The position numbers and the translations under genes are program-made. A DNA stretch of 64,000 nt, from positions 480,001-544,000 of the forward strand of contig CM000155.2 of NCBI GenBank assembly GCA_000004695.1, in the 5' to 3' direction. Below are positions 50,842 through 56,150 of the stretch, in pieces; position 1 is the first letter of the stretch; the number at the start of each line of letters is the position of its first letter. This stretch comes from Dictyostelium discoideum (Eukaryota). A model generated the notes under the pieces. The model made no database searches. It was not told the DNA's origin and worked only from the letters and a program-made list of their open reading frames with translations.

Positions 50842-52518
50842 TTAAATTTCCCTTTCTTTTGAGGGAGGAAACTTTTTTGAAGTTTCCCCACAACATTTAT
50901 CTTTATTATCGACTATTATTTTACATTTTGTATTTTTTGTTAAATTTGATATTTCATTGAATTGCAAAAATGGAAAAATATAAATTGATTCAAGTGTTGT
51001 ATTTTGATTGAGCATTGATGCAATTGATTTATTTATTAAATTTATATTTTTTAATTCATATTCAACTACATTATCCCGATTACTAAAACCAAGTGTTAAA
51101 GTTTTAATTTTTTTATTATTTACAAGCGAATTCATAAAATCATTTAAAAAGCTTTGATTGTAACTTTTTAAATTCTGATCACCCCATCCACATTTATTGT
51201 ATACTCCACCACAATTATTAGAAAATGATAATTTTGTAATTGTTGAATTTGTTGATAATAATTTTAAACATTGTTCCCATAGAGACATTGAATATGGTGG
51301 TATTTCCATACATGAATCATCTTGAAAACCAAATGAACAATAGGTTCGATTATCTTCATTAATACCATTATCAATAATATCACCTTGGAAATTTCTAAAA
51401 TCAATAGATTTAATATTATCCATTTTGTTAAAATCAAATTCTGTTTTATTTTTATCGCCAATAATATTATTATTATTCATTTCATTATCGTAGATTGAAG
51501 ATATAAAATGAAATTGAAGGCCAACTTTGAGTGTATGTAAATTTGGTGATTGTAAAAATCTATAAAGTGCATATAATGGTATGTAGTCATCAATGATTTC
51601 TACACTTTCATAGTTTTGATTTAATTTTGAAATTGAGTGATATTGTTGAAGATGTGATGGTCCTGCACCATAGCAAAAACCATATATACTAATGGATTTG
51701 ATTTTTAAATATTTTGGGTTTAATTCTTTAATCATTTCATAAACGAATCCATAGATTTTTATGTATTCAAAATCATATTCAACTTCTAATAGATTTGTTT
51801 TAAATTTGAATTCTCTGTCAATTAACATATGTTCTAAATCATCTGATTGATAGCCATTAGAACGCAATTCTAAATTAAAATTTATTACTATATCTTTATT
51901 ATCCAATTTATTTAAATATGTTAAAATCCATAATGAATTTGTGAATGAATATTGATAGTCATATAAACATCTAACATTAACAGTTTCTAATGATTTTAAA
52001 CTATTCATATAATTAATTGATTCATTATTTATTTTAAAGTAATCAACTATTATTGTTTTAATTAAATCATTATCAACTAATTTAAATTTATCACTATTAT
52101 TATTATTATTATTATTATTATTATTATTATTTTTATTATTATTATTATTATTATTATTATTATTATTATTATTATTATTATTATTATTATTATTATTATT
52201 ATTATTATTAATACTATTATTGTAATAACTTCTGAAAAAGTCATCGTCATATTCTCTATCATTATCTAAATAAACATGAGGAATAAAATGATTGAAAAGT
52301 TTTTGAGAATATTTAAACCAATTCCAATTGACAAAGAAATAGTTTATTATTTCATTTTTAAATTTGTAATCTTTTATAAAATCATCTGTTTTAAATTCTT
52401 CATATAATAAATATAATATTTGTTTTTGAATTATTAATGGTAATACTATTATTTTATTATTATCATTATATTTTGATAGATTTGTTTTGAGTTTTTTATT
52501 CGGTGTTTCTTTTTCCAT
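50842..52518 (-). CDS. F-box-like / RNI-type leucine-rich-repeat family protein (558 aa), intact copy
   Basis: Single ORF MEKETPNKKLKTNLSKYNDNNKIIVLPLIIQKQILYLLYEEFKTDDFIKDYKF...VNWNWFKYSQKLFNHFIPHVYLD..., a long (AAT)n poly-Asn, and the same C-terminal repeat consensus ending ...LTKNTKCKIIVDNKDKCCGETSKKFPPSKEREI. A short internal fragment of the same family lies at 50570..50700. Confidence 0.65.
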   Translation of the reverse strand: MEKETPNKKLKTNLSKYNDNNKIIVLPLIIQKQILYLLYEEFKTDDFIKDYKFKNEIINYFFVNWNWFKYSQKLFNHFIPHVYLDNDREYDDDFFRSYYNNSINNNNNNNNNNNNNNNNNNNNNNNNNKNNNNNNNNNNNNSDKFKLVDNDLIKTIIVDYFKINNESINYMNSLKSLETVNVRCLYDYQYSFTNSLWILTYLNKLDNKDIVINFNLELRSNGYQSDDLEHMLIDREFKFKTNLLEVEYDFEYIKIYGFVYEMIKELNPKYLKIKSISIYGFCYGAGPSHLQQYHSISKLNQNYESVEIIDDYIPLYALYRFLQSPNLHTLKVGLQFHFISSIYDNEMNNNNIIGDKNKTEFDFNKMDNIKSIDFRNFQGDIIDNGINEDNRTYCSFGFQDDSCMEIPPYSMSLWEQCLKLLSTNSTITKLSFSNNCGGVYNKCGWGDQNLKSYNQSFLNDFMNSLVNNKKIKTLTLGFSNRDNVVEYELKNINLINKSIASMLNQNTTLESIYIFPFLQFNEISNLTKNTKCKIIVDNKDKCCGETSKKFPPSKEREI

Positions 52519-53328
52519 TTTTTTTTTAGTGTTTTAAATTATCTGATATTTTAATAAAAAATATTAAAAATTATTTTTGTTTGATTATTATTTTTATTGT
52601 TTTTGTTGGGGAGAATTTTTTTGTTTTTTTTTTTTTTTTATTAAAAATAAATAGAAATAAAAATAAAGCTAAAGAAAAACAATAAAATGATCACACAAAT
52701 ATTAAAAAAATAAAATAAAAAAAATGAAAAAAAAAAAAAAAAAAAAAAAAAATGATTTTTAATAATATCTAAAAAATTTTCAGGAAAAAAATGAAAAAAA
52801 AAAAAAAAGCATTTTTTTCAAAAAAAAAAAAAAAAAATTCTTGGTTTGCCTTTATTTCTTTTTCATCACCTAAACTCATACCTCTTTTTCATCACTCAAA
52901 CTCATTATATTTACAGTGAACGGATTTGTGGTAACAGCGATAATGAAAAAAAAAACTAAAATAATCAAAAAAAAAAAAAAATAATCAAAAAATAAAAAAA
53001 AAAAAAAAAAAAATCTTGGAAAAAAAAAAAAAAAAAAAAAAGTTTTTCCCCCATATTAATTTATATTGGATTATTATAAACATGTAAAAAATAATGATTG
53101 AAAGGTTTTTGAAACTATTTAAACCAATTCCAATTAACTAAGGATTTTTCAAAAAAAAAAAAAAAAAAAACCCAAAAAAAAAAAAATTTGTAAAAAAAAA
53201 AAAATTTAAAAAAAATAAATAAGGTCGGAAATGAAATTTTTTTAAAAAAAAAAAAAAAAAAAAAAAAAAAAAAAAAAAAAAAATGTTGTCATATACCATG
53301 GGTAATGGAAAAAAAAAGTAATTAATAA

Positions 53329-53874
53329 ATGGAAAAAGAGAAATTTGAATACTCAAGAGAGGGTGAAAAGAGTAGTTTAACAATTGATACAGGTAAATTA
53401 GTTCAGGAATTTAATTCTTTGCCATATGAAGATATTCAAGGTAAAAAGAAAATTATAGAAAAGTTATTTGGTTCAGTTGGTGACGATGTATCAATAGAAC
53501 ACAATTTTCATTGTGATTTAGGATTCAATATTCATGTTGGTAATAGATTCTATGCAGGTTATAATTTTACAGTATTGGATGTAGCAGAGGTTAGAATTGG
53601 TGATAATTGTTTAATTGCACCAAATGTTGGCATTTATACAGCAGGCCACTATATATCACCACCAGAGGAAAGGCATAAAACAGGTTATGGTATACCTATA
53701 ACAATTGGTAACAATGTTTGGATAGGTGGTCATTCTGTAATATTACCAGGTGTAACCATTGGCGATAACTCTATCATTGCCGCTGGTTCTGTCGTTAATA
53801 AAGATGTTCCAAAAAATACAATCGTTGCTGGGAATCCAGCTAGAAAAATAAAAGATATAACTTCAAAACTTTAA
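53329..53874 (+). CDS. hexapeptide-repeat (left-handed beta-helix) O-acetyltransferase, maltose/galactoside O-acetyltransferase (Maa/LacA) type, 181 aa
   Basis: ORF ...HNFHCDLGFNIHVGNRFYAGYNFTVLDVAEVRIGDNCLIAPNVGIYTAGHYISPPEERHKTGYGIPITIGNNVWIGGHSVILPGVTIGDNSIIAAGSVVNKDVPKNTIVAGNPARKI shows [LIV]GxxxxI hexapeptides and the Maa-family HxxxP(L)...ER motif. Confidence 0.8.
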   Translation: MEKEKFEYSREGEKSSLTIDTGKLVQEFNSLPYEDIQGKKKIIEKLFGSVGDDVSIEHNFHCDLGFNIHVGNRFYAGYNFTVLDVAEVRIGDNCLIAPNVGIYTAGHYISPPEERHKTGYGIPITIGNNVWIGGHSVILPGVTIGDNSIIAAGSVVNKDVPKNTIVAGNPARKIKDITSKL

Positions 53875-55520: not shown

Positions 55521-55739
55521 CTTTTAGAAAAAAAAAAAAAAAATAAATCTTTGAGAAAAAAACAATTAGGAAATTGTTTTTTTTTTTATTTTTTTTTTAT
55601 TTTCTTTTTTTTAAAAAATTTCAACAAAAATGTTCATGTTTGTTTTAGTTTCTCCTTTATTTTTTTTGATTTTTGTGTATTTATTTATTTTTAAAAATTT
55701 TATTTTAGGTCTCTATAACTAATAAAAATTAATATTTTC

Positions 55740-56150
55740 AATAAATGGAAAAATAGAAATTTGAAATTCAGTACTCAATAGAGGGTGAAAAGTAGTTTAA
55801 CAATTAATGCAGGTAAATTAATTCAAGAATTTATCATGATTGATTTTATGCAGGTTATAATTTTACAGTATTGGATGTAGCAGAGGTTAGAATTGGTGAT
55901 AATTGGTTTAATTGCACCAAATGTTGGCATTTATACAGCAGGTCATTATATATCACCACCAGAGGAAAGGCATAAAACAGGTTATGGTATACCTATAACA
56001 ATTGGTAACAATGTTTGGATAGGTGGTCATTCTATAATATAACCAGGTGTAACCATTGGCGATAACTCTATCATTGCCACTGGTTCCGAAAAATACAATG
56101 TTTGCTGGAAATCCAGCTAAAAAAATAAAAGATATAACTTCAAAACTTTT
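55740..56150 (+). pseudogene. decayed duplicate of the 53329..53874 O-acetyltransferase (internal deletions and stops)
   Basis: About 90% nucleotide identity to 53335..53874 over the retained parts (aatggaaaaatagaaatttgaaattcagtactcaatagagggtgaaaag...ggtgataattggtttaattgcaccaaatgttggcatttatacagcaggtcattatatatcaccaccagaggaaaggcataaaacaggttatggtatacctataacaattggtaacaatgtttggataggtggtcattctataatataacc...). The N-terminal third is missing and there are in-frame TAA/TAG codons. Confidence 0.65.

Follow-up and report, generated by a model that had tools for sequence, protein, structure and literature searches.

In a 64,000-nt stretch of the Dictyostelium discoideum genome (about 20% GC, called the window below), an O-acetyltransferase gene (AT) and several members of a leucine-rich repeat (LRR)-like gene family lie close to a type I polyketide synthase (PKS) gene. 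The repeat unit of this locus is a pair of convergent genes, namely AT on the plus strand and, tail-to-tail with it, a family gene of the F-type subfamily on the minus strand, and this block of 2.2–3.4 kb is repeated head to tail. In the window, unit 1 comprises the intact AT (53329–53874) and a dead family gene, F (53897–55519), and unit 2 comprises a dead AT copy (55745–56152) whose family partner is deleted. The two units amount to four genes, of which AT alone survives in this strain; the other three are dead or gone. The intact family gene E (50842–52518) belongs to the other subfamily; it is an older paralog and a bystander upstream, outside the duplicated unit. An initial annotation of this DNA had proposed a tandem two-gene unit of 2.5–3 kb. 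The head-to-tail block was borne out by our data, while the units had been wrongly drawn as E plus AT and F plus AT pseudogene. Nor did its view hold that one copy of each gene is being lost, because only AT persists of the four unit genes and E does not belong to the units.

All four elements of the initial annotation were recovered in the reported order and on the reported strands. E, described there as an intact family gene, is an uninterrupted open reading frame (ORF) of 558 aa on the minus strand. It is followed by a spacer of 810 bp, by AT and by a junction of only 22 bp (53875–53896) between the stop codons of AT and F. A tail-to-tail junction of this kind accompanies every repeat unit. 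F on the minus strand and the AT pseudogene on the plus strand come next, and then an A-rich deletion scar of approximately 100 bp (56153–56256). The large 3′ exon of the PKS gene (56394–63449, minus strand), recognized by its ORF and Pfam domains, closes the array on the right. In an independent D. discoideum assembly (GCA_054883475.1, locus L001), 20.5 kb aligned with the window at 99.6% identity and in identical gene order; therefore, the structure is no assembly artefact. For comparison we used the corresponding loci of two further D. discoideum strains, L008 (GCA_054859355) and L007 (GCA_054859385), and two loci of ‘D. cf. discoideum’ GCA_054859235.1, L004 and L003, which lie on one contig at a distance of about 110 kb. 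Judging from organism names and strain set, the comparison genomes appear to be those of PMC12745789.

The second AT copy had been described as a pseudogene with about 90% nucleotide identity to AT and with deletions and stops, and our alignments agree with this. By BLASTN, it matched the intact AT with 89.8% identity over 334 bp (E = 2e-130) and with 85% over a further 96 bp. When only substitutions were counted, 381 of 400 aligned bases were identical (95.2%). The reading frame is interrupted by stops at codon 4 (55754 G>T), codon 73 and codon 139 (56041), and it is shifted by deletions of 2 bp (55790/1), 118 bp (55833/4) and 20 bp (56082/3) and by an insertion of 1 bp (55905). The native stop codon is lost and the longest remaining ORF encodes 49 aa. 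Since the intact AT has no intron, splicing is unable to rescue this copy, and no pattern of introns would restore the frame; the outcome that would have refuted the initial annotation, a copy intact and in frame after splicing, was thus not obtained. Both the AT copy and F are unprocessed (duplicative) pseudogenes. In L008, the homology extends from nucleotide 251 of AT past its stop codon and the junction and takes in 560 bp of the family gene that converges on it. This homology beyond the transcript was read in L008; in the window the flank is deleted. As the L008 homology runs on into this adjacent gene, retroposition of the AT copy was excluded. The AT pseudogenes of the AX4-type sequence and of L008 both have TAG at codon 4; their divergence of 6.0% is near the synonymous divergence (dS) of 0.044 between the AT genes of these strains. 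The shared nonsense codon and the similarity of these two values indicate that duplication and inactivation of AT predate the split of the strains. Only distances were used for this dating, as the AT tree had bootstrap values of 27–57 around the pseudogenes.

F was likewise correctly recognized as a pseudogene, although its start had to be corrected from 55520 to the ATG at 55519. It is 96.2% identical to an intact 529-aa allele at L008 (10589–12148), relative to which it has suffered frameshifting deletions of 43, 1, 2 and 2 bp and one nonsense substitution (TTA>TAA at 55035–55037). The intact references against which the lesions of F and AT were read are single-exon ORFs. In the automated annotation of GCA_054883475.1, a gene of 355 aa is placed across F (L001 10927–12191, corresponding to about 54255–55519), and the neighbouring family copies C and D are joined into one product of 1042 aa; both calls are probably annotation artefacts.

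Tree clades and alignments that span the gene junction define the unit as AT plus an F-type gene. Neighbour-joining trees of the family, built from full-length sequences and from the C-terminal part, united F with the intact allele (DdW_d), the three ‘D. cf. discoideum’ copies DcfZ_d, DcfZ_e and DcfZ_f, DcfZB_2 and the fragments following AT copies, including copies and fragments from the second AT locus of this ‘D. cf. discoideum’ genome, in a clade with a bootstrap value of 100. Every member of this clade is located directly 3′ of AT or of an AT relic, in tail-to-tail orientation. E was found in the other clade together with C, D, DdW_c and DdR_c, among them copies upstream of AT in other strains, and the split between the E and F subfamilies was the same in all three gene segments tested. 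The closest relatives of F are the AT-partner copies of other genomes (95.7% and about 91% identity), and those of E are C, DdR_c and DdW_c. Furthermore, a single alignment passes through the 3′ part of AT, the junction and the 3′ part of the family gene at three loci: L008 (10251–11107 versus 12320–13139), L003 (10250–11117 versus 15925–16791) and L004 (10470–12322 versus 12669–14499 and versus 16024–17866).

Comparison of the haplotypes showed how differently the units have decayed. L008 carries AT, an intact F, the AT pseudogene, a C-terminal family fragment and the PKS gene, and the window and L001 carry AT, the F pseudogene, the AT pseudogene and the PKS gene. In L007, AT is followed by a 215-bp stub of F, 230 bp of unrelated sequence and the PKS gene. 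Positions 56152 and 56257 of the window correspond to L008 12601 and 13882, so that approximately 100 bp here replace about 1.28 kb there, and it is within this interval that the family fragment of unit 2 survives in L008 (12640–13103). Because the stub in L007 is a truncated F that matches the full-length L008 allele at 99.1% identity, this haplotype is derived, through loss of about 3 kb, and was ruled out as the ancestral unduplicated state. Each of the three D. discoideum haplotypes examined has exactly one intact, strongly constrained AT. The PKS-adjacent locus L004 of ‘D. cf. discoideum’ consists of three units (AT, d, AT relic, e, AT relic, f, then PKS); in units 2 and 3, which share 94% identity over 2 kb, AT is reduced to a relic of 77 nt with 81–83% identity by BLAST. 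At L003 there are two AT copies, one intact and one truncated, and an F-type family gene or fragment follows each of them; the unit of AT and family gene was therefore also copied to, or kept at, this distant site. A decayed family copy is present downstream of AT in D. citrinum (about 1.4 kb away) as well as in the other ‘cf. discoideum’ genome. In D. dimigraforme, the 10 kb downstream of AT yielded no family copy, and in D. firmibasis none was detected on either side of AT. Redundant copies that decay in different ways in three D. discoideum haplotypes agree with the birth-and-death evolution suggested by the initial annotation.

The lesions, the composition of the units, the polymorphism among strains and the selective regimes described here would be best explained by the following history, of which the recombination mechanism and the order of events are inferred. 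A block of the Maa-type AT and its tail-to-tail F-type gene would have been duplicated in tandem at the DNA level, presumably by unequal crossing-over between family paralogs that flank AT in the same orientation. The extra AT copy would then have been killed by the nonsense mutation in codon 4 before the compared D. discoideum strains diverged, and would have drifted neutrally since. Subsequently, the family genes of both units would have decayed strain by strain, redundant copies being lost by point mutation and deletion; in the AX4-like sequence F is frameshifted and the partner in unit 2 deleted. We regard this explanation as a whole, together with the view that the region is the end, nearest the PKS gene, of a cluster of fast-evolving LRR-like genes specific to dictyostelids, as quite probable. 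Several points weigh against it. The family partner of unit 2 is absent from the window itself, and the drawing of the unit rests on other genomes. When homology at the breakpoints was sought by comparing the spacer 52519–53328 with 55520–55744 and 56153–56393, only low-complexity A/T matches were obtained; with such spacers the breakpoints are not definable, and unequal crossing-over is not demonstrated by them. The AT tree places the pseudogenes with low bootstrap support. Finally, the family half of the units has diverged two to three times more than the AT half, which is at or slightly beyond what relaxed constraint would allow, and gene conversion between AT and its pseudogene or exchange among family paralogs may have blurred the ages of the two halves.

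The ages of the unit halves were compared in two unit pairs. At L008, the AT halves are 97.1% and the family halves 91.0% identical, and at L003 the values are 95.6% and 91.2%. Once the different constraint is allowed for (omega 0.05–0.22 for AT, indicating strong purifying selection, and 0.5–0.67 for the F-type genes), the divergence of both halves is compatible, and a single block duplication is the simplest reading. A different order of events can be envisaged, in which the array of AT and family genes predates the split between D. discoideum and ‘cf. discoideum’ and the pseudogene looks young because it was converted by the intact AT until shortly before its inactivation. In D. discoideum, and likewise at the sister lineage's locus B, AT pseudogenes indeed group with the intact AT of the lineage to which they belong, the family fragment of unit 2 branches basally in the partner clade, and the array of the sister lineage holds much older AT relics (74–76% identical). 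Moreover, AGG at codon 115 is found in the AX4 pseudogene and the AX4 AT and in no other sequence. On the other hand, few informative sites stand behind these arguments, the lineage-specific clustering is accounted for equally well by independent recent duplications, and an equal two- to threefold ratio between the halves in two independent unit pairs suggests a difference in rate. We consider such an old array, homogenised by conversion, unlikely, though it is the most serious competitor of a single block duplication. Far less credible is the model of the initial annotation, a recent tandem duplication of a divergent pair, E(−) and AT(+), which would have given rise to F and the AT pseudogene as a second, decaying unit. 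Order and orientation would suit such a head-to-tail repeat, the unit sizes of 2.3–3.0 kb are similar, and inside a tandem array the stretch alone cannot show where one unit ends. Yet pairwise alignment did not identify E and F as sister copies: they are 75.9% (BLAST) or 81.9% (aligned columns) identical, belong to separate clades with bootstrap values of 100 and rank among the most distant pairs of the family in all three gene segments. E and the intact F allele are separated by a dS of 0.21, whereas the 4.8% difference between AT and its pseudogene is equivalent to a dS of roughly 0.07. The nearest relatives of E and F differ as described above, the E–AT spacer shows no homology to the spacer between F and the pseudogene, and an E ortholog was found upstream of AT in none of the other strains compared. 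Massive conversion from distant paralogs, overwriting E or F entirely, could save the model but would give mosaic identity profiles, of which none was seen in the three segments. We therefore give this model almost no credence and retain the duplication of AT together with an F-type gene.

A further possibility is that AT and the F-type gene form a functional module, for instance as convergent genes under common regulation or as members of a PKS tailoring cluster, and that selection drives their joint copying. D. discoideum and both ‘cf. discoideum’ genomes share the tail-to-tail arrangement with a spacer of about 22–90 bp, D. citrinum retains its decayed family copy downstream of AT, the unit has been multiplied at at least three loci, and a PKS gene and a SABATH-type methyltransferase gene are nearby. 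However, the partner is dead or deleted in the AX4-type, L007 and L009 genomes while AT is strongly constrained, and the family copy is missing from the searched surroundings of AT in D. dimigraforme and D. firmibasis. Physical linkage of abutting genes suffices for their co-duplication. The adjacency of AT and PKS, which the initial annotation had pointed out, is true here. A type I PKS gene lies convergent to AT or its pseudogene in the strains of D. discoideum and, among the ‘cf. discoideum’ loci, at one. No PKS gene was found within 10 kb of AT at the five other AT loci examined, those of D. firmibasis, D. citrinum, D. dimigraforme, one ‘cf. discoideum’ genome and locus B of the other; at these loci, DnaJ, WD40 or OPT genes are the neighbours of AT. 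Because the adjacency is confined to the discoideum clade, there is no comparative support for AT as a PKS tailoring enzyme, and nothing found here speaks for a biosynthetic link. A module maintained by selection is accordingly very improbable in our view, and simple co-duplication of neighbouring genes is preferred.

The intact AT is a single-exon ORF of 181 aa, identical to D. discoideum AX4 DDB_G0291538 (Q54ED9), and Pfam and NCBIfam matches agree with its initial description as a Maa-type acetyltransferase. Matches to Pfam Hexapep (4.8e-16; 58 bits with a cut-off of 27) and Hexapep_2 (5e-12) predict the hexapeptide repeats of a left-handed beta-helix. The best NCBIfam matches were maltose O-acetyltransferase (9e-53) and galactoside O-acetyltransferase (9e-46), both well under the equivalog cut-offs (NF007499, 178.8 bits with a cut-off of 314; NF007076, 155.8 bits with a cut-off of 347). 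Residues 21–177 aligned with the solved structures 2ic7 (3.7e-50), 1ocx (1.5e-47) and 1kqa (5e-44), and the active-site His is aligned, ‘YTAGH’ of AT matching ‘YTATH’ of the structures. The N-terminal Mac capping motif (PF12464) scored marginally (21.0 bits, E = 4e-4; cut-off 22.1). By its sequence, AT is classified as a member of the Maa/LacA family, which does not imply that it shares substrate and function with E. coli Maa/LacA. The gene is transcribed, with a base mean of approximately 204 in RNA sequencing (PMC12405889), and a peptide has been detected (PMC10252828).

Homologs of the protein family to which E and F belong were found in dictyostelids only. When E, C and D as well as 24 aligned members were scanned against Pfam, no match was returned, LRR models included. 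The name ‘F-box’, used by some sources for Polysphondylium violaceum homologs, could not be reproduced, as none of the 24 members matched a Pfam F-box model at E ≤ 1. An AlphaFold (AF2) model of E had a predicted template modelling score (pTM) of 0.71 and a mean predicted local distance difference test (pLDDT) score of 67.6, with alternating strands and helices between residues 155 and 536 and values below 55 in the N-terminal 60 residues. Foldseek matched this model to NLRP7, NLRC4, RNase inhibitor and COI1 with probabilities of 0.9–1.0 and TM-scores of only 0.2–0.34. The family protein may form an LRR-like solenoid of the ribonuclease-inhibitor type. E itself contains an (AAT)n tract of about 120 bp (52090–52210) that encodes approximately 40 consecutive Asn residues. 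Its exact 558-aa product occurs as a called gene in GCA_054883475.1 only, and no collinear ortholog with at least 85% identity was found beside AT in other strains. The best relative of E in GCA_054859355 is 80% identical at the protein level and, according to locus-tag numbering, lies about ten genes away from AT.

Using tblastn and BLASTN, we found at least 10 family copies or fragments within the window, of which only D (ORF at 46360–47919) and E are intact ORFs. Copy A (31255–32198) is partial and abuts an inverted C-terminal fragment (32193–32338), copy B (43713–44157) is also partial, copy C (44414–45794; DDB_G0291642) is a truncated ORF and copy D (46378–47919) is complete. Short relics were located at 46251–46388, 49941–50059, 50574–50726 and 53070–53144. 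The third of these, a 153-bp internal fragment on the minus strand just 3′ of E (about aa 152–208), is 88–90% identical to C, D, E and F. The fourth lies, also on the minus strand, within the E–AT spacer, represents a 5′ part of the gene (about aa 63–83) and is 83–85% identical to the same segment of D, E and C; compared as a possible remnant of an ortholog of the AT-upstream gene, it reached approximately 84% identity only. Several family copies are truncated likewise in other genomes. In the F-box/LRR families of plants and nematodes, broken copies are typically numerous. Pairwise dN/dS was 0.8–1.26 for E-type copies (E and D, and copies at L004, L007 and L008) and remained lower for the F-type genes, as given above. 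From E-type ratios of about 0.8–1.3, from differences between strains of one species in presence or absence and in intact or broken state, and from the restriction to dictyostelids, it might be speculated that the family diversifies rapidly and serves in recognition or as adaptors, much as the F-box/LRR and NLR-type families of plants and nematodes, and that it takes part in a conflict with bacteria, parasites or other amoebae. The region would then represent a second hotspot of structural variation like tgrBC, with AT as a passenger or functional partner. Taken jointly, these proposals seem to us improbable.

Two other features of the cluster were recorded. A segment of 434 bp is present twice with 89.9% identity, 3′ of D (45938–46364) and 3′ of the methyltransferase gene (49637–50057); both copies hold a family C-terminal fragment with flanking sequence, which points to a further segmental duplication in the cluster. 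The methyltransferase gene itself (about 48437–49482, plus strand) encodes a SABATH-type S-adenosylmethionine-dependent carboxyl methyltransferase (Pfam Methyltransf_7) and is situated among the family copies, approximately 7 kb from the PKS gene. Scans for tRNA genes and Rfam families between 43000 and 57000 revealed no RNA gene or retrotransposon target that might account for the instability of the region.

For annotation, these results mean that 53897–56152 should be read as two pseudogenes, that E is not the partner of AT, and that the position of AT beside the PKS gene should not be taken as a biosynthetic cluster. The locus offers a clean and datable example of tandem duplication followed by strain-specific decay, and it draws attention to a dictyostelid LRR-like family, uncharacterised and evolving fast, for which a population-genetic study may be worthwhile. 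The array as such is ordinary birth-and-death evolution, a new and well-resolved instance of a familiar process.

Both gene types of the unit, and the array itself, can be compared with known systems. AT resembles the left-handed beta-helix acyltransferases Maa and LacA (PDB 1OCX, 2IC7 and 1KRR) in its full-length alignment (1e-44 to 1e-50), its hexapeptide repeats and its active-site His; unlike these, it is a eukaryotic homolog that scores far under the NCBIfam equivalog thresholds and has a marginal Mac motif. The predicted solenoid of E is similar to those of ribonuclease-inhibitor-type LRR proteins (the LRR domains of NLR proteins, RNase inhibitor, COI1 and FBXL17), from which its family differs in low TM-scores, in the lack of Pfam LRR and F-box matches and in the confinement of its homologs to dictyostelids. 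Among tandem multigene arrays that undergo birth-and-death evolution through unequal crossing-over, the closest parallel within this organism is the tgrB/tgrC locus of D. discoideum, for which similar dynamics have been described in a study that does not discuss the present locus (PMC12745789). The two have in common local tandem block duplication, many truncated or frameshifted copies, recombination between paralogs, and differences between strains in copy number and in the identity of the intact copies. In contrast to tgrB/tgrC, the LRR-like family has neither TIG repeats nor a known recognition function, and an unrelated, strongly conserved enzyme gene, AT, rides as a passenger in its repeat unit.

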